In this document: piece by piece, positions 7,666-13,714 of the stretch
Numbering within the stretch: the first letter of the stretch is position 1
Layout: each line of letters opens with the position of its first letter
DNA from: a virus
Taxonomy: Duplodnaviria; Heunggongvirae; Uroviricota; Caudoviricetes
Reading direction: 5' to 3' (one strand)
DNA length: 13,714 nt
Virus record (IMG/VR): IMGVR_UViG_2693429599_000004
The notes under the pieces: model-generated
Told to the model about the DNA's origin: nothing
Databases searched by the model: none
The model's input: the letters and a program-made list of their open reading frames with translations, nothing else
Translations under genes and position numbers: made by a program

Positions 7666-8199
7666 TTATCTGTCGATTCCCCAGCACGCCAGCGCGCTCT
7701 CCTGGTCACGACGGGATACCTGACCATAACAGTTATTTGAGCGGATACGGCAGTCTCTGCCACCGTCCTTAATCCACCAGCGAATCGCCTCACACGCTCC
7801 CCTGCGGTCACCAGCATTCAGCCGCTTATAAAACGTCGACGGGAAACACTTACCGGGGCCAATGTTATAGGGACAGAATGACGCTATACCCGCTTTCTGT
7901 GGTTCGGTCAGTGGAACTTTAATATTGCGCTCCACCCATGCCAGCGCCTTATCCCGTTCAATGGCATTAACCTGGTCGCATTTTTCCTTCGACAGTTTCA
8001 TGCCCGGAATAACAGGTTTACCATCCACCATTGTGGCACCGCGGCAGATGGTCCAGATACCCGCACCATCACGGTATGCCGTTGTGTGGTTACCTTCTTT
8101 TTCATCCAGAAACTGGTCGAGAATATCAGGCGCAGGCGCACCGATGGCAATCAACGCCAGAACGGCAGCCGACAGGCCATATTTGATTTTGGTGTTCAT
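7666..8199 (-). CDS. R: Endolysin R, lysozyme with N-terminal signal-arrest-release (SAR) domain
   Basis: 177 aa; Gly/Ala-rich weakly hydrophobic N-terminus (GLSAAVLALIAIGAPA) then a lysozyme catalytic region (EGNHTTAYRDGAGIWTICRGAT). Matches the Stx-phage/P21-type R from memory. Confidence 0.9.
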   Translation of the reverse strand: MNTKIKYGLSAAVLALIAIGAPAPDILDQFLDEKEGNHTTAYRDGAGIWTICRGATMVDGKPVIPGMKLSKEKCDQVNAIERDKALAWVERNIKVPLTEPQKAGIASFCPYNIGPGKCFPSTFYKRLNAGDRRGACEAIRWWIKDGGRDCRIRSNNCYGQVSRRDQESALACWGIDR

Positions 8200-8327
8200 G
8201 GATATTTATCAGGATTTATCGGTTCCGAATCCCTGGATATGTTAAATCTTCAGCCCGCCAGCGGTAGGACACTGGCGTTTTTCCTGATGGCTGAAATATA
8301 TCTGACAATTTCAGTAGAGGATTAACC

Positions 8328-8642
8328 ATGCATAACGATCAACATAATTATGATTTATGCCTGCAAGCCATAAATGAGCGGGTAAAATCAGAGTGCCTCT
8401 TACTCCTCCCACAAGAACACGATGCAGTAAAATCCATTCAGGCTGAGCCGTATGGACATCTCACACCTGTGACTCTCGGCATTATCGCCAGAGCATTAAC
8501 ACAGCCCATGCTTATGCGTATTAAGACCAATATAAATAACTGGTTGAATGAAGAATTAAGCTACCTTGATTGTGAGTGGGACAATCATTACGCAAAAACA
8601 CAAAAAGAACGCATCTTCAGTCGATTATCCAGCAACAGATAA
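8328..8642 (+). CDS. Hypothetical protein (104 aa), convergent partner inside the holin-endolysin insert
   Basis: ATG at 8328 with GAGG SD 7 nt upstream. Opposite strand to the late operon; stop lies 10 bp from the stop of the 268-aa gene. No motif recognised. Confidence 0.5.
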   Translation: MHNDQHNYDLCLQAINERVKSECLLLLPQEHDAVKSIQAEPYGHLTPVTLGIIARALTQPMLMRIKTNINNWLNEELSYLDCEWDNHYAKTQKERIFSRLSSNR

Positions 8643-8651
8643 CGAGCCACC

Positions 8652-9458
8652 TTATATACGCCCTTTCAGATAAGTCATCCCCGGCTGCATCCAGTCAACA
8701 GGTGCTTTCTTAAAGGGCGTATTATCAAAATCACGCAGAAGAGCCTCCAGCACAACTGCATCATTGTCAGCACCACTGGCCATCATTTCAATCTCAGCTG
8801 CTACCTGCAGATATCCCATGCAACGACCAATGCGCTTCATCAGCCCCTGCTTTTTATTGTTCTTCAGGTAATCAATGGCAAATTCAATGAGCGCCTCACT
8901 ATGCTGGTGCGATGGCGGTGTTAATTTCCCATTTTCTGAGATGGTTATTTTCCCGCCATCTCCGTATACAACAAAGGATGGCCGGTTACACTCCCATTCC
9001 TGATCTTTATCAGGTGCAGACGCAATAAAATAACGTTTATTTCCTTCCTCTCCGGCACTTTTAACCGTAATGGAGTACTCAGACTGCAGACAAGACGCCT
9101 CTTTTTCTGACCGCAGTGTTGACGGCGGCATCTTCAGAGAACCAGTAATTCTTCCCGGTAGCTTTCCTTTGTAGGTTATCAACACATCCTGCGCCTCTAA
9201 AATTATGGGGCGCTTTTCCGGCAACGGTTCGTTCCCTTCACATAACCCGGCAGCAACATCCATGAAAAACTGCTTCGCCTGCTTTTTCGCCTCAGCTTCG
9301 TAAAACTCCAGCGTGGCACCTTCAGTACGGTCAAGACTAATCGCCACATTTGGCAACAACAGTGACGGATACCCACCAATTTCCAGTACCACAGTAACAG
9401 TAATCTTATCCGGGTAATTATTTATCCCTTTAACAACCAGTTCGTATTTTTTCTTCAT
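8652..9458 (-). CDS. Hypothetical protein (268 aa) inserted between pinholin and endolysin
   Basis: ATG at 9458 lies 4 nt after the holin stop, with GGGGAGAG SD inside the holin 3' end. Long uninterrupted ORF. No catalytic motif, signal peptide or TM segment recognised by eye. Confidence 0.65.
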   Translation of the reverse strand: MKKKYELVVKGINNYPDKITVTVVLEIGGYPSLLLPNVAISLDRTEGATLEFYEAEAKKQAKQFFMDVAAGLCEGNEPLPEKRPIILEAQDVLITYKGKLPGRITGSLKMPPSTLRSEKEASCLQSEYSITVKSAGEEGNKRYFIASAPDKDQEWECNRPSFVVYGDGGKITISENGKLTPPSHQHSEALIEFAIDYLKNNKKQGLMKRIGRCMGYLQVAAEIEMMASGADNDAVVLEALLRDFDNTPFKKAPVDWMQPGMTYLKGRI

Positions 9459-9462
9459 CGCT

Positions 9463-9678
9463 TTACTCTCCCCGCGCCGCCTTACGCCGGTCCTCTCTGA
9501 TTTTGAAATACAGGTTAGTCAGATATGTCAGCAGCCCAAACAGCAGACTCCCCAGCACGCCTATTGCCGCCCACTGAGACGGGGAAACCCTGTCCAGCAA
9601 CTGCAGGAACCAGTAGCCCGTTCCCACCGCTGACGTGGTGTATGACACACCTGTTGTGATTTTTTCCATCTGGTACAT
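9463..9678 (-). CDS. S: Pinholin S (phage 21 S21-like class II holin) with dual-start motif
   Basis: [71 protein letters not shown] matches S21 from memory; two ATGs three codons apart; GGGAGA SD. Upstream part of the track ORF (to 9783) rejected. Confidence 0.9.
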
Positions 9679-9827
9679 ACCCCGTCTCCCGTTATCCGGA
9701 AGCTGACAACAATAAAAAAGCCACCAGTTAAGTACTGATGGCTCTGATAACTCATGCAGGCATCTCAGACGACCCACTGACACTACCGGTGAGTTTAACG
9801 ATACCTTCCATTTGACTGGCTCACTTT

Positions 9828-11696
9828 TTATGATGATGCTGGTGCATTTATCTCCAGCACCAGACTTTCTATCTCAACGCCATACGCTGCATTTTTGGTA
9901 ATATCCGTCAGCGTCAGCGCATTCAGCCCCAGTGTCAGACTGTCTTTTATGACCTGGAATGCCGGGCCAGCCACTCCATTCAGTTTCGGAGTAACCGTGG
10001 CACTGCCGGCGGTGAACACCAGCTCCAGCGTCTGCCAGTCGTTACTGTAATTCCCGAACTCGCCCAACTTTGTGTTTCCTGCTTTCCTGTGATGCATCAG
10101 ATTCAGTTTGCCGTCTGTGGTCTGGGTGAAGAACGACATCAGGAACGGGTTACCAGTCCCGGTCATCGCCACGACGTCAGGTAACGCTACATCGGTATAC
10201 AGATAAATTCCCAGACCGAACTGGTTGTTGGTCAGTGCGCCTGACAGTCGAAACTTACAGCTCAGTCTGCCACCCCGTGTCAGCAGGGAGACTGCGTCAT
10301 CCACCGGGCGCGTCAGGGACCAGGCTTTATTGCTCTGCTTGGCGATCTTAAATACACCACCCGACAACTGAATTCCGCCGTCCTTAATGGTCCAGCCCTG
10401 CGCAGCAGCCTCTCCGGCTGTCGGCAGCAGGGAGATTGTGCGAACGGACGTATCTGCAGACGGACCCGATGGCGTGTCGCCGCCGGGCGAGGGTTTGATT
10501 TCCGGTGCCTTACCACTGATGAAGGCTGAGGTGCGCCCGGCTACGTTCAGAATAGCAGTTGCCATACGATCGGGAATAATGCCACGACGCGCCCATGAGC
10601 TGAAATGCGTCGGGCGATTTGATGATACCCAGTTTTTGTTCGTTCGGGATGCCGAACCGTAATAACCAGACCCGGCAATATCAGGATCTTCTGACGGGTT
10701 GTTTGTCGGTGTATTAACTCCGCTACCATCGGTCATAAAGGGAACAAAATAAATCTGCTGGGATTCTTTACCTTTATATGCACCATATACCACTTCATAT
10801 TGCGTACCGTGTTCTTGTTTCCACGCGTATGTCGTGTCGCCACAAATCCAGGGGACTGATGCCGGACTTCCACCGTGACACTGCGCTGCCAGCCCGGCAA
10901 GGTCAGCACGGAACTGCTGTACCATTGCAAGAAATGCTGCTGGCTGCTGGGCGTAACTGGCATTCGTCATATCGAATTCCCCCTGCATCCAGCATATCGC
11001 CAGCAAAACGTTTTTCGGGTTTTTCTGCAATGCTGCCTTCGTGCGGAAAAGCAGATCCTGATATAACGGCTTACCCACTCCCCAGCGAGCCGAATCCTGA
11101 CTGGCCCCCGTGGACTCGCTGAATGTCCCCTCCGTGCCCTGGGTGAATGCCGAACCACCACGACAGCATGGTACCAGCAGGATCCCCGCATTATTAGGGA
11201 TATACGGAAGCAGTTTTTTGGCAATATGTAAGCCCTGGCCGACACAGCCGTACTGCCCTTTGCTCAGGTCAGCCCGGGGATGGTTAATCGTACTCATATC
11301 CTGAACATCATGCAGACAATGGTCAGCAGGAATGATGTCGTTAAATACGCATACTTCACCACCGGGAGTCACTGTGTTACGACGGGCCAGTTGCTTAATG
11401 CGCGGATGGGGCGCATCGTATGAATCCGGAAGCGGAAGCCCTTCACCGTAAGCCATGGCATTGGACTGCCCGGCCAGTACGATGACGTAGTACCACTCCG
11501 GCTCAGTTGCACCACTGACGACCACATCACCTTCTGCTGCAATCGCCTGCATCAGGGTATAAGGGGTTATGGCCACCGGACTACCAAACGGCTGCCAGCC
11601 CTCTTTCAGTTTATGTGTCAGCTTTTCCGCAAGATCTGACGGCGACGCCGCCCTGACAACATCATAGTGTTTAAATGCCATGGTTCTTTCCACCAT
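9828..11696 (-). CDS. nanS: Prophage-encoded sialate O-acetylesterase NanS-p-like (N-terminal DUF1737-like region plus SASA/SGNH esterase domain)
   Basis: 622 aa; GQSN esterase motif ([18 protein letters not shown]). Position between the tRNA/cargo block and the holin, as in Stx phages. Likely true start is the second ATG at 11681 ([16 protein letters not shown]). Confidence 0.85.
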
Positions 11697-11874
11697 CTGA
11701 AAAATGATTCTTTAAAATACCTGACATGTAATACAGAAAAAACACAAAACCATACCTTAATTAAAAACCTCATCATCAAGCAGATATGCATGGATAAACT
11801 ACAAGACGAGATATAAACCACCCTGCATTTAAATAAACAATAAACAACATCAGAAAAATAATTCTGCTCTATGG

Positions 11875-11901
11875 TTTACAATCAAAAATATCATTTATAC
11901 T
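11875..11901 (+). promoter_or_regulatory. Candidate sigma70 promoter for the divergent 111-aa gene
   Basis: TTTACA (11875-11880), 15-bp spacer, TATACT (11896-11901), about 40 nt upstream of the ATG in an AT-rich intergenic region. Spacer is short; pattern match only. Confidence 0.25.
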
Positions 11902-11941
11902 TTTCAGAACATCACCAGCAAGGCATAAACAAGGAAACTAA

Positions 11942-12277
11942 ATGAAGTGGATTGTGATTGATACAGTTATCCAGCCATCATGCGGAATATCTTTTTCAGT
12001 CATATGGAGTAAAATAAAATTAATAATCTGGTATCAATCGGATGCTTTCTTACCTCCTGAAAGTATATTTACACTGACTCACACAGGCATCATGCTCAAT
12101 AACAAAGTGCTGCCTGTAACCATTTACAACGTAGTACCATTCAATAAAACATTCTGGAATTTAATCAAAAACAGCCAGGAATGCCCTACAAATACAGATA
12201 ACGTATTGAATGAATGCTTTAATAACCGTTGCACTCTGCAAATATGTCCTTATGGGCTAAAACAACAAAGTCCATAA
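11942..12277 (+). CDS. Hypothetical AT-rich, Cys-containing protein (111 aa), divergent from the late operon
   Basis: ATG with AAGGAAA SD; low-GC coding sequence; Cys-rich C-terminal half ([25 protein letters not shown]). No homolog recognised. Confidence 0.45.
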
Positions 12278-12300
12278 GGAGTTTACTCACATCTGACAAA

Positions 12301-12333
12301 ATCAATATAAACAGCCCCTCCGGAGAGGGGCTG
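12301..12333 (-). terminator. Rho-independent terminator (minus strand) inside the cargo region
   Basis: Minus strand CAGCCCCTC-TCCG-GAGGGGCTG (9-bp perfect GC-rich stem, 4-nt loop) followed by TTTATATTGATTTTGT. Confidence 0.65.
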
Positions 12334-12724
12334 GAGAGTGGCGCTATGTGCCATTGCATGGTGCCGGGTGCCTCCCGGTGAATTCAGTACCAGCACCTGA
12401 ATCCGCGATTATCCCATATACCTACTCGCTGATTGCCCCTCCGCACAGGGGGATTCACCATGCCAGTTTCTTTTAACAAACTCCCCGCAAACCAGACAAC
12501 AGTCAACCGCCTGAATTGTGAAGTATTTAAAAATTTCTCCCGCTAACTGATACCCGGCTAACAGTCTGGCGTTTTCTTTTTCAGCAACGGGAAAGCAGCA
12601 ACCACCACACCCGCCACCAGCACACCGTCAGCCAGCACTGACATTATCCGGCTGCTGCAATGCCATTCACAAAAACAGTAAGCAATCACTTTTTACCGTA
12701 ACCGGTGATAATCCAGATATGTAT

Positions 12725-13081
12725 CTACCCCAGATGAGTAATCCGAAGTTCATCCATACCACAGGTCCTGGCTATTCTGTTGTACTCCTGAACAAGAGCA
12801 AATAATTCTGAATTAGCCACCATGAACTCATCGCAAACCCTCTGTATAGCATCACTATTCAGAATAATAACGTCTCTTCCCGAAAGACGATCAGGAGTAC
12901 AGAACAAAACTGTCAAACGGCTGAAGGCCTTTGCTCGTTCTGCATTGACTATATCAATACGCTGCCTAAGGATGAAACACCCCGACGCCTCATCAATATT
13001 CACTCTACCCACACCATATGAATGATAAATATTTAATGCTGAAAAAACCATTAGACCGTATAACAAACACTCAATCAACAC
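12725..13081 (-). CDS. Hypothetical protein (up to 118 aa) at the position stxA occupies in Stx phages
   Basis: Track ORF starts at GTG 13081; first ATG at 13051 gives 108 aa; weak SD. Co-directional with the tRNAs and late genes. No homolog recognised. Confidence 0.4.
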   Translation of the reverse strand: MLIECLLYGLMVFSALNIYHSYGVGRVNIDEASGCFILRQRIDIVNAERAKAFSRLTVLFCTPDRLSGRDVIILNSDAIQRVCDEFMVANSELFALVQEYNRIARTCGMDELRITHLG

Positions 13082-13188
13082 TTAACAGAACTTTTATTTT
13101 TGACAAACATATAATATTTTCAACAATATCCTGAGCCAGGTATATTTCAGTATAAGGCTCTGCCGAAAGGAATCTGGAAGAATGAATA

Positions 13189-13265
13189 TGGCGCGCTGTA
13201 CTGGATTCGAACCAGTGACCGATTGCTTAGAAGGCAATTGCTCTGTCCGGCTGAGCTAACAACGC
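13189..13265 (-). tRNA. argO: tRNA-Arg (anticodon UCU), phage argO/argU-like
   Basis: 77-nt cloverleaf read by hand: acceptor GCGTTGT/ACAGCGC, D-arm TAGCTCAGCCGGACAGAGC, anticodon loop CTTCTAA, T-arm GGTTCGAATCC, encoded CCA. Resembles E. coli argU. Confidence 0.9.
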
Positions 13266-13365
13266 TGAATACCGATAATGGACCGCCATCGGGGACCCGC
13301 CCCCGCACCAACAACCCTGTTATCGTGTCGTCTGCTCTTCCTGATAAGCTAATGGCGGTTTGTGA

Positions 13366-13441
13366 TGGTGGCCCTTGCTGGATTTGAACCAGCGACCTGG
13401 CGATTATGAGTCGCTCGCTCTCACCACTGAGCTAAAGGGCC
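13366..13441 (-). tRNA. ileZ: tRNA-Ile2 (anticodon CAU, lysidine type; ileX/ileZ-like), formally tRNA-Met by anticodon
   Basis: 76-nt cloverleaf: GGCCCTT acceptor, GCTCAGTGGTGAGAGC D-arm, anticodon CAT at 34-36, GGTTCAAATCC T-arm, encoded CCA. Near-identical to E. coli ileX from memory. Confidence 0.88.
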
Positions 13442-13450
13442 GGAAGCAGA

Positions 13451-13479
13451 ATAATAATGGTGCGTAATTAATTCTGCAA
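13451..13479 (-). promoter_or_regulatory. Candidate sigma70 promoter directly upstream of the tRNA pair
   Basis: Minus strand TTGCAG, 17-nt spacer, TATTAT; the -10 ends 9 nt before the tRNA-Ile2 5' end. Confidence 0.35.
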
Positions 13480-13490
13480 TCTCATCCGTT

Positions 13491-13714
13491 TCAAACGATT
13501 AAATCCTGAACTTCCCTGACTGTCTGCTCAAAACGTCCGGTCTCCAGTTCAACGCCAATCGCACGACGCCCGAGCGCCAGTGCAGCTTTTACCGTTGAAC
13601 CTGAGCCCATAAAAAAATCTGCAACCAGGTCATCATCTGCATAGTACGTCAGCGCCGGCCACTGGTTCAGGGCGTATGCGAACGCTTTCGCCAGTTCTGA
13701 GTGTCGCGACAGGG
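13491..13714 (-). CDS. DNA methyltransferase (N6-adenine/N4-cytosine, YhdJ/CcrM-like), C-terminal part; 5' end outside the window
   Basis: Open frame to the window edge ending ...DLVADFFMGSGSTVKAALALGRRAIGVELE...; the D-FxGSGST AdoMet-binding motif followed by an IGxE segment is typical of this methylase class. Confidence 0.6.
   Translation of the reverse strand, partial: LSRHSELAKAFAYALNQWPALTYYADDDLVADFFMGSGSTVKAALALGRRAIGVELETGRFEQTVREVQDLIV

Follow-up and report, generated by a model that had tools for sequence, protein, structure and literature searches.

The 13,714-bp window analysed here very probably belongs to an E. coli prophage that is lambda-like, lacks stx and has become defective, and whose late operon includes an ordinary nanS-p gene. 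This reading is drawn from the domain architecture and active-site blocks of the encoded protein, synteny with related prophages, breakpoints mapped at the position of the toxin genes, the absence of stx, and the prevalence of the same arrangement elsewhere. The stx-less layout is not unusual. With coverage of at least 80% required, the same junction was found in 864 of 5,426 complete E. coli genomes (~16%), including, among the matches listed, EPEC E2348/69, FDAARGOS_1259 and AR_0069. Occurrences of nanS-p in non-Stx prophages have already been published (PMC10462455; PMC8065619; preprint 10.64898/2026.05.13.724894), and fewer than 3% of chromosomal PasA-esterase loci adjoin stx (10.64898/2026.05.13.724894). 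Because the layout is both common and previously described, the finding is correct but ordinary, and it leaves the current understanding of NanS-p and of Stx phages unchanged. Its import is mostly for annotation: the name nanS-p can be given to the gene confidently, and the locus neatly illustrates the mosaic late region common to Stx and non-Stx lambdoid prophages.

The esterase gene and its product

The longest reading frame is uninterrupted, covers 9828–11696 on the minus strand and encodes 622 aa. The true gene is most likely 9828–11681 (617 aa), since homologues are annotated from the second ATG (MAFKHYD...) and a Shine-Dalgarno-like motif, GGAAAG, lies upstream of it. Within the 622-aa frame, Pfam models identify DUF1737 at aa 8–55 (E 1.9e-15), SASA (PF03629, E 1.5e-12) and DUF6645 at aa 472–582 (E 3.7e-19). 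In a sequence search against solved structures, E. coli NanS (3PT5) matches aa 64–384 (E 4.8e-122) and a NanS-p C-terminal domain (6YP6) matches aa 427–618 (E 3.3e-29); phrog_143 matches over the full length. In 617-aa numbering, the protein thus consists of DUF1737 (~3–50), a NanS-type SGNH esterase (~59–379), a linker, and a lectin-like DUF6645 domain (~422–613), the three-domain arrangement of NanS-p proteins. Its gene is also in the expected place for nanS-p, ahead of holin S among the late genes of a lambdoid prophage, and on the same strand as the tRNAs, holin, lysozyme, Rz and terminase. The intact NanS-p-type esterase reported in the initial annotation is therefore confirmed. An identical protein is encoded on at least 10 contigs, and that of E. 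coli FDAARGOS_1259 is 99% identical.

All four NanS sequence blocks, as defined in PMC10792757, are present in the 622-aa frame: GQSNA at 76, RGGSAF at 179, MQGEFD at 237 and THFS at 363, the last within RPTHFSS. Alignment to 3PT5 and 933W shows that Ser73 (in GQSNA) and His359 (in RPTHFSS) are kept in 617-aa numbering. A catalytic Ser/His/Asp set had been anticipated; the Ser and His are indeed conserved, but the Asp does not belong to this family, as catalysis in NanS is by a Ser19/His301 dyad without Asp (PMC9063846), and the window protein has the same Ser nucleophile and His base with no catalytic Asp. The RPTH form of block IV has been described previously for Stx2 phage 86 (PMC10462455). 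As judged from its sequence, the product is a type-II SGNH sialate O-acetylesterase with a jelly-roll, lectin-like C-terminal domain.

By analogy with characterised NanS and NanS-p enzymes, it would strip O-acetyl groups from Neu5,9Ac2 and mucin-bound sialic acids, and this deacetylation would free sialic acid for use as a carbon source. Strain EDL933 has seven functional nanS-p alleles and O104:H4 five, all prophage-borne, and all those tested from both were active (PMC8065619). The N-terminus of the window protein has no hydrophobic stretch resembling a signal peptide, so access to substrate would presumably come only with late-operon expression (through Q antitermination) and cell lysis. 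The C-terminal domain is just 35% identical to the crystallised phi24B/933W domain, and only one of the four aromatics put forward as carbohydrate-binding is kept, two being changed from Tyr to Phe and the fourth from Phe to Leu. The low identity and these substitutions suggest that ligand specificity may differ.

The characterised relatives differ from the window to varying degrees. The catalytic domain of chromosomal NanS (YjhS; 3PT5) aligns end to end, with GQSNA, RGGSAF, MQGEFD and xHFS all kept, but NanS is a single-domain, 337-residue chain without DUF1737 or a lectin-like domain (PMC10462455; PMC8065619). The NanS-p proteins of 933W (L0105/z1466) and phi24B (vb_24B_21/gp84) have the same three domains and four SGNH blocks, and their genes likewise have the tRNA/stx region on one side and holin S on the other. 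Identity to them is 56% overall and 70.6% in the catalytic region; the N-terminal linker in the window is 14 residues shorter and lacks SISSP, and there is no stx upstream. The NanS-p of phage 86 (orf3, BAF34035; “NanS-p sequence 20” in PMC10462455) is 92% identical at the protein level, and has in common a C-terminal domain of the same type and RPTH, an unusual form of block IV. Its DNA is 96.6% identical to the window from the lysozyme gene through most of nanS-p (window 7580–11505, the esterase and lysis segment), and the downstream genes are alike (S, a 268-aa DUF1327 protein, a 104-aa ORF and R). Phage 86 differs in having a 933W-type DUF1737 and long linker, with a mosaic joint at about window 11505, and also in having stx2AB upstream, no iraM-like gene and another packaging module.

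The stx position and its flanks

The gene order in the window is methylase, ileZ, argN relic, argO, slot, STnc100/PasD-type sRNA, iraM-like gene, nanS-p, S, R and Rz. This is the late scaffold of Stx phages (Q, methylase, ileZ/argN/argO, slot, nanS-p, S, R, Rz), with the Q gene and the pR' promoter beyond the end of the contig and Q present in collinear relatives. Synteny with 933W, EH2201 and phage 86 bears out the claim that the esterase is positioned as in Stx phages. Features described below are on the minus strand unless noted otherwise.

On the tRNA side, the DNA methyltransferase gene located between Q and the tRNAs is represented by its 3' end (13491–13714), cut at the contig end. The adjacent tRNA, with a CAT anticodon (tRNA-Ile2, reading AUA; 13366–13441), has no mismatch to ileZ of 933W and is annotated as tRNA-Ile in RefSeq relatives. 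A degenerate argN-like relic at 13279–13358, recognised by alignment with 933W argN, retains its acceptor arms, while its anticodon and T arms have diverged. It was considered as a functional middle tRNA and rejected: neither ARAGORN nor the Rfam tRNA model calls it, and the T-loop and anticodon arm are non-canonical. The counterpart of 933W argO, a tRNA-Arg with anticodon TCT (13189–13265), bounds the stx slot on its upstream side.

On the other side of the slot is an STnc100/PasD-type prophage sRNA gene (12303–12492), which matches Rfam RF02076 over model positions 1–206 of 206 with a score of 132.4 bits against a gathering threshold of 47 (E 1.5e-29); its assignment as PasD-type comes from its position and this STnc100 match. 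A terminator scan identified an intrinsic terminator (stem 12312–12333, followed by a T-tract), the fold energy is −74.6 kcal/mol (z −2.3), and the sequence ahead of the esterase in E2348/69 matches it at 99.5% identity. A TTGAC conserved at the right boundary of the slot was considered as a −35 element for this sRNA and rejected, since it precedes the start of the Rfam alignment by only ~14 nt. An iraM-like anti-adaptor gene (11942–12277, plus strand; 111 aa), oriented against the late operon, separates the sRNA from nanS-p; its predicted function is RssB inhibition. Its product is placed in the IraM family by NF007393 (162 bits against the NCBIfam cut-off of 121) and in the PmrD/IraM family by Pfam, and the gene has 78% nucleotide identity to one annotated as iraM between stx2B and yjhS in the Stx2a phage EH2201.

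Downstream of the esterase, the intergenic region before the holin (9679–9827) has a strong stem-loop at ~9717–9745 followed by a U-tract, and is 99% identical to its counterparts in Stx2 phage 86, FDAARGOS_1259 and AR_0069. PasA/PasC is placed at the esterase-holin position in the Pas-sRNA preprint (10.64898/2026.05.13.724894), a likeness that here is one of position only. The first lysis-cassette gene is a class II, P21-type holin S (9463–9678, 71 aa; PF04971, E 2.5e-32), followed by the endolysin R, a lysozyme (7666–8199, 177 aa; PF00959), and the Rz spanin (6711–7169, 152 aa; PF03245, E 7e-47).

No stxA-stxB pair lies between the argO-type tRNA and nanS-p, its place in Stx-converting phages. 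Searches of the whole window with Stx2A/B (tblastn, E ≤ 10) and with the stx2 segment of 933W (permissive blastn, word size 7) gave chance-level matches only, the best of all with E 0.39, and none of them within the slot (12523–13188). The toxin genes are thus absent, as had been claimed, and the search turned up no overlooked stx remnants upstream of the esterase. Comparison of this junction with Stx2 phages located the breakpoints. Stx-phage homology covers the ileZ/argN/argO block and ends at 13181, 8 bp beyond tRNA-Arg(TCT), then restarts at 12521, 46 bp beyond the stx2B stop codon; on the tRNA side, 933W and EH2201 match window 13181–13592/13632 at 86–87.5%. Exactly at the stx position is a 666-bp cassette (12523–13188) unrelated to stx, in agreement with the idea of alternative cargo. 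It stands in for positions 3381–4748 of the 933W segment (the stx2 promoter and stx2AB). Its identity is 100% with FDAARGOS_1259 and AR_0069, and ~98.5–98.7% with mEp460 (mEp460_ev081), a non-Stx phage. An empty-site allele is found in the O104:H4 C227-11 prophage, where positions 9713/9716 of the segment compared correspond to 4745/3412 of the 933W segment. The three alleles (empty in O104:H4, stx2AB in 933W and the small-ORF cassette) define the boundaries of the stx2 cassette to the base, in a slot between a tRNA and the STnc100/PasD-type sRNA.

The cassette is probably coding. Its larger ORF (12725–13051, 108 aa, with a conserved core of 92 aa from a GTG at 13003) matches phrog_2873, a family of unknown function, over its full length (E 1.2e-70); a conserved, uncharacterised ORF of 92–108 aa occupies the place of the toxin. 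It has 23 homologues, all of them unnamed proteins, in two clades that are ~60% identical, and where organisms are named they are only Escherichia or Shigella. No match was found in Pfam, NCBIfam or PADLOC, and PADLOC likewise gave no sign of a defence system in the small genes nearby. For the 108-aa ORF, AlphaFold2 predicts a helical hairpin (pLDDT 75), for which Foldseek returned no match at E < 0.1 in the PDB or BFVD. The second ORF (12558–12689, 43 aa) is small, hydrophobic and DUF3927/TciB-like (phrog_1470, E 1.5e-11; PF13064), and RefSeq relatives annotate it as a DUF3927 family protein. The argO-to-sRNA interval might be viewed as a three-state “moron slot” (empty, stxAB, or the 108-aa ORF with the TciB-like one), with the cassette as late-operon cargo in an accessory role like that of stx. 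This is a tentative suggestion and rather doubtful; if true, the cassette could, for example, encode a factor that serves the lysogen or interacts with the host and is made upon induction.

Origin of the stx-less layout

The same arrangement is found at several stx-negative loci. At the PP4-type locus of E2348/69 (at potB), in FDAARGOS_1259, in AR_0069 and in others, the gene order is identical to that of the window (methylase, tRNA-Ile, tRNA-Arg, DUF3927, sRNA, IraM, SASA esterase), the DNA is 98–100% identical, and, as in the window, stx is lacking here. E2348/69 differs in having ISEc13 and IS200C between the esterase and the holin, and most of its morphogenesis genes are present, while the window prophage has its own deletions. 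At the PP4-type locus the Pas-sRNA preprint puts PasD2 and PasA on opposite sides of the esterase (10.64898/2026.05.13.724894).

Outside this region the resemblance to Stx phages is limited. The suggestion of an Stx-phage backbone holds for the late-regulatory, esterase and lysis segment, to which collinearity is confined, but not for packaging and tail: the terminase, gpW, J, Lom and tail-fibre genes are lambda-like, with best matches to non-Stx phages such as PhiR12, 434 and lambda. The prophage is defective, having lost nu1, the N-terminus of gpA and the gpW-to-J genes. The whole window is not covered to 80% or more by any complete E. coli genome or phage record.

With the late-region scaffold shared, and the slot holding stxAB in Stx phages, a two-ORF, 0.66-kb cassette here and nothing in the O104:H4 prophage, such mosaics are best accounted for if lambdoid prophages resident in one cell recombined homologously across the flanks conserved on either side, the tRNAs and the sRNA/esterase. 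A more specific history, in which the locus descends recently from a genuine Stx-converting phage whose stxAB was lost or exchanged, had been raised in the initial annotation and seems improbable. It could account for the 96.6% identity of the esterase and lysis segment to phage 86 and for a replaced segment that agrees with the stx2 cassette boundaries within tens of bases, and the Pas-sRNA preprint proposes that stx may be repeatedly lost from such loci (10.64898/2026.05.13.724894). However, the flanks of the slot match Stx phages at only 86–87.5% on the tRNA side and ~70% on the sRNA/iraM side, against 98.7–100% for stx-negative prophages and phage mEp460, and the window retains no trace of stx. 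The similarity to phage 86 collapses within nanS-p at ~11505, so the slot did not come with the phage-86-like segment, and the packaging and tail modules are unlike those of phage 86. Such descent cannot be shown where the filler itself is shared with a non-Stx phage and an empty-site allele exists, and the direction, gain or loss, is not recoverable from these data. That the stx-less appearance is instead an artefact of short-read assembly, with repeated prophage DNA collapsed or mis-joined, is extremely improbable. The window is an entire draft contig (GCA_001283785.1, CYFI01000043.1), bounded by an IS1 end and a repeated prophage gene, and the lack of a complete E. coli genome covering at least 80% of it might raise this concern. 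Positions 11600–13632 are nevertheless 100% identical and collinear in the closed genome of FDAARGOS_1259, and 11650–13300 are 100% identical in that of AR_0069, and the esterase has the same neighbours on several independent contigs; misassembly could affect only the distant junctions at 3689/3690 and 5437–5648.

A different question is whether NanS-p is mainly a virion component, with DUF1737 docking to the capsid and the esterase and lectin domains acting on surface glycans at infection. The gene here would then be a structural relic in a dead prophage and no gut fitness factor, which is compatible with its being an ordinary nanS-p in a defective stx-negative prophage. This role is considered unlikely for the window, if less so than the alternatives above. 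Some of its features fit: DUF1737 is kept, with 62.5% identity to that of 933W, and a cryo-EM and proteomics preprint on phi24B (2026) reports that the NanS-p homologue gp84 decorates the capsid, bound through DUF1737. The head, however, is of another kind, since head genes of lambda type, among them one for a gpD-like decoration protein, are found in the window prophage and in its intact relatives, in contrast to the T=9 podovirus head of phi24B, and the window protein is without the longer SISSP linker proposed in that preprint as a processing site. The esterase ORF has also remained intact, and identical on the contigs noted above, despite the deletion of morphogenesis genes, as would be expected if it were selected for a role outside the virion. 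Lysogens, moreover, depend on nanS-p alleles to grow on Neu5,9Ac2 (PMC8065619). For the NanS-p family more broadly, the same review considers that it may have a part in the phage life cycle, and the reported function of DUF1737 as a capsid anchor in phi24B suggests that the primary role may be virion-associated rather than in lysogen fitness.

Gene order and the stx slot

The nanS-p gene, encoding a prophage-borne sialate O-acetylesterase, lies in a gene order that is largely that of Stx2 phages. Upstream of it, all on the minus strand, are the 3' end of a DNA methyltransferase gene (13491-13714), a tRNA with a CAT anticodon that aligns to 933W ileZ without mismatch (13366-13441), a degenerate argN-like relic (13279-13358), an argO-like tRNA-Arg (TCT; 13189-13265), a 666 bp slot segment (12523-13188), and an STnc100-type sRNA (12303-12492), followed on the opposite (+) strand by an iraM-like gene (11942-12277; NCBIfam 162 bits, cut-off 121). 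Downstream come the minus-strand esterase-holin intergenic region (9679-9827), which contains a strong terminator hairpin, and then holin S, a DUF1327 protein of 268 aa, an oppositely oriented ORF of 104 aa, lysozyme R, and Rz. This scaffold is shared with Stx2 phages, where the interval from argO to the sRNA-like region carries stx2AB.

On the tRNA side, homology to 933W and the Stx2a phage EH2201 spans window positions 13181-13592/13632 at 86-87.5% identity, taking in the tRNA block and stopping 8 bp past the argO-like tRNA. It restarts at 12521, at a point 46 bp beyond the stop codon of stx2B. The comparison of the upstream junction with Stx2 phages proposed in the initial annotation thus places the breakpoints at 13181 and 12521 against both phages. 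The toxin genes are absent, as had been claimed: no stx remnant was detectable in the window by similarity search, and the stx position is occupied by unrelated filler, which matches the non-Stx phage mEp460_ev081 at 98.5% identity and, at 100%, FDAARGOS_1259 and AR_0069, two E. coli genomes with stx-negative relatives of the locus.

A non-Stx prophage of O104:H4 C227-11 has an empty site. Positions 9713 and 9716 of its locus correspond to 4745 and 3412 of the 933W locus, so that 933W 3413-4744 (1,332 bp), containing the stx2 promoter region, stx2A, and stx2B plus 41 bp, is precisely missing. This allele defines the stx2 cassette at 933W locus positions 3413-4744, and the comparison shows one slot with three alternative states: empty, stx2AB, or a small-ORF cassette. 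All three end on the right at a conserved block, TCACAATTCAGnCGGTTGACnGTTGyCTG, located a little upstream of the sRNA. In 933W a terminator hairpin follows argO, whereas in the window the filler replaces that hairpin too.

Two minus-strand ORFs are found in the small-ORF cassette. The shorter (12558-12689, 43 aa) encodes a hydrophobic DUF3927/TciB-like peptide. The larger (12725-13051, 108 aa) has a 92-aa conserved core that begins with GTG at 13003; the ORF is a full-length match to phrog_2873 and is left unannotated by RefSeq (PGAP) in the relatives inspected. Its homologues, whose named organisms are only Escherichia or Shigella, fall into two clades at about 60% identity, and this pattern speaks for a coding sequence. 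A helical hairpin is the predicted fold of its product; a fold search and PADLOC found no informative fold or family match. This ORF is the only element at the locus that might repay experimental work.

The sRNA, a full-length Rfam match to STnc100 (132 bits, gathering score 47), has its own terminator and separates the slot from the iraM-like gene. It shares 99.5% identity with the E2348/69 locus where a 2026 preprint places PasD2 (10.64898/2026.05.13.724894); in Stx2 phages a ~70% identical homologue follows shortly after stx2B. The esterase-holin region, 99% conserved in Stx2 phage 86 and E. coli prophages, contains a G+C-rich hairpin of 12 bp with a U-tract behind it (about 9711-9745). The region agrees in position with the site reported for the PasA/PasC sRNAs (10.64898/2026.05.13.724894).

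Within the ileZ-argN-argO trio, the middle tRNA has degenerated both here and in phage mEp460. The relic (13279-13358) retains the acceptor stem, with a 4-nt insertion in the anticodon arm and a non-canonical T-loop, and was not called as a tRNA by ARAGORN or the Rfam tRNA model.

The esterase and its possible roles

An ORF scan of the window gives nanS-p as a single long ORF of 622 aa (9828-11696, minus strand). The second ATG (MAFKHYD...) is the annotated start in phage and genome homologues and has a GGAAAG motif just 5' of it, so the gene most likely extends over 9828-11681 and encodes 617 aa; at least 10 public contigs carry exactly this protein call. DUF1737, SASA (PF03629), and DUF6645 were all found by Pfam, and in a PDB sequence search aa 64-384 matched E. 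coli NanS (3PT5, E 4.8e-122) and aa 427-618 the C-terminal domain of a NanS-p solved by crystallography (6YP6, E 3.3e-29). On these grounds the gene is judged real, intact, and of NanS-p type, in agreement with the initial annotation. The protein is 99% identical to the FDAARGOS_1259 prophage protein, 95.6% to that of E2348/69, 92% to that of Stx2 phage 86, ~88% to that of phage JLK-2012 and to one allele of O104:H4 C227-11, and 56% to 933W L0105.

A catalytic Ser/His/Asp had been expected. NanS uses Ser19 and His301 and has no catalytic Asp (PMC9063846), and the type is diagnosed by four blocks, GQSNA, RGGSAF, MQGEFD, and R-x-SHFS (PMC10792757). All four are kept here (GQSNA 76, RGGSAF 179, MQGEFD 237, RPTHFS 361, in 622-aa ORF numbering), while the expected Asp was a mistake, NanS-type enzymes being without the triad. 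The RPTH form of block IV was noted earlier for the NanS-p of Stx2 phage 86 (PMC10462455).

By analogy with NanS and tested NanS-p enzymes, the protein would de-O-acetylate Neu5,9Ac2 and mucin sialic acids via a Ser/His dyad, with the C-terminal jelly-roll domain probably targeting glycans. Direct reading of the N-terminus revealed no signal-peptide-like hydrophobic stretch, so release would need late-operon expression and lysis. A virion-associated role, not exclusive of a released enzyme, is suggested by a 2026 cryo-EM preprint in which the phi24B homologue is reported to attach to a T=9 capsid through its DUF1737; relatives of the window prophage, however, have lambda-type heads, and the N-terminal linker of the window protein lacks SISSP, the proposed processing-site motif.

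Mosaic ancestry and prevalence

The description of the locus as an Stx-phage backbone holds for one part of it. From 7580 to 11505 (R, two ORFs, S, and most of nanS-p) the window is 96.6% identical to Stx2 phage 86. Identity falls to 84% at ~11505, about codon 60 of nanS-p, and then to ~71% upstream of the gene. This joint falls where DUF1737 meets the catalytic domain, which suggests that NanS-p is shuffled domain-wise by recombination. The packaging and tail genes identified by Pfam (gpA terminase, gpW, J C-terminus, Lom, tail fibre) are instead lambda-type, with best matches in non-Stx phages (PhiR12, 434, and lambda among them). With one part phage-86-like and the other lambda-type, the locus reads as a typical lambdoid mosaic of modules common to Stx and non-Stx phages alike.

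Nor is the arrangement rare. The 1.65-kb junction (11650-13300), counted as present at ≥80% coverage, is in 864 of 5,426 complete E. coli genomes, and E2348/69, the stx-negative EPEC prototype, has the same layout. Functional nanS-p alleles, seven in EDL933 and five in O104:H4, are all on prophages (PMC8065619); non-Stx prophages are known to carry the gene (PMC10462455); and <3% of chromosomal PasA-esterase loci adjoin stx (10.64898/2026.05.13.724894). An esterase without stx is thus a correct observation that was already known; the earlier reading is confirmed as to observation and partly supported as to interpretation.

State of the prophage

The prophage is defective, and the window that contains it amounts to one complete short-read contig (GCA_001283785.1, CYFI01000043.1). 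Closed genomes match the stx-slot region at 100% identity, so that region is not an assembly artefact. At 3689/3690, gpW, with 57 of its 68 aa, runs straight into the final 166 codons of J, all head and tail genes between them (portal to tail) being missing; this joint, found in this contig only, may be a genuine deletion or a product of short-read assembly. At 5437-5648, ~0.95 kb is deleted relative to intact relatives, removing the first ~100 gpA codons and most of nu1, which remains as a 29-codon stub. This deletion recurs: the 528-aa truncated terminase is also in at least one other contig, from another draft assembly. Positions 1 to about 91 are an IS1 end that adjoins and cuts short an nleB-family gene (92-685, minus strand) for a type III effector (arginine glycosyltransferase), leaving 197 of ~329 aa and suggesting an EPEC/EHEC-like host.

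Between holin and lysozyme, the 268-aa protein (8652-9458, minus strand) has a DUF1327 N-terminus and an extra C-terminal part, and the 104-aa ORF (8328-8642, plus strand) is antisense. Both are present in Stx2 phage 86, as orf5 and orf6, whereas the closest E. coli relatives have a short YdfR-type gene in their place.
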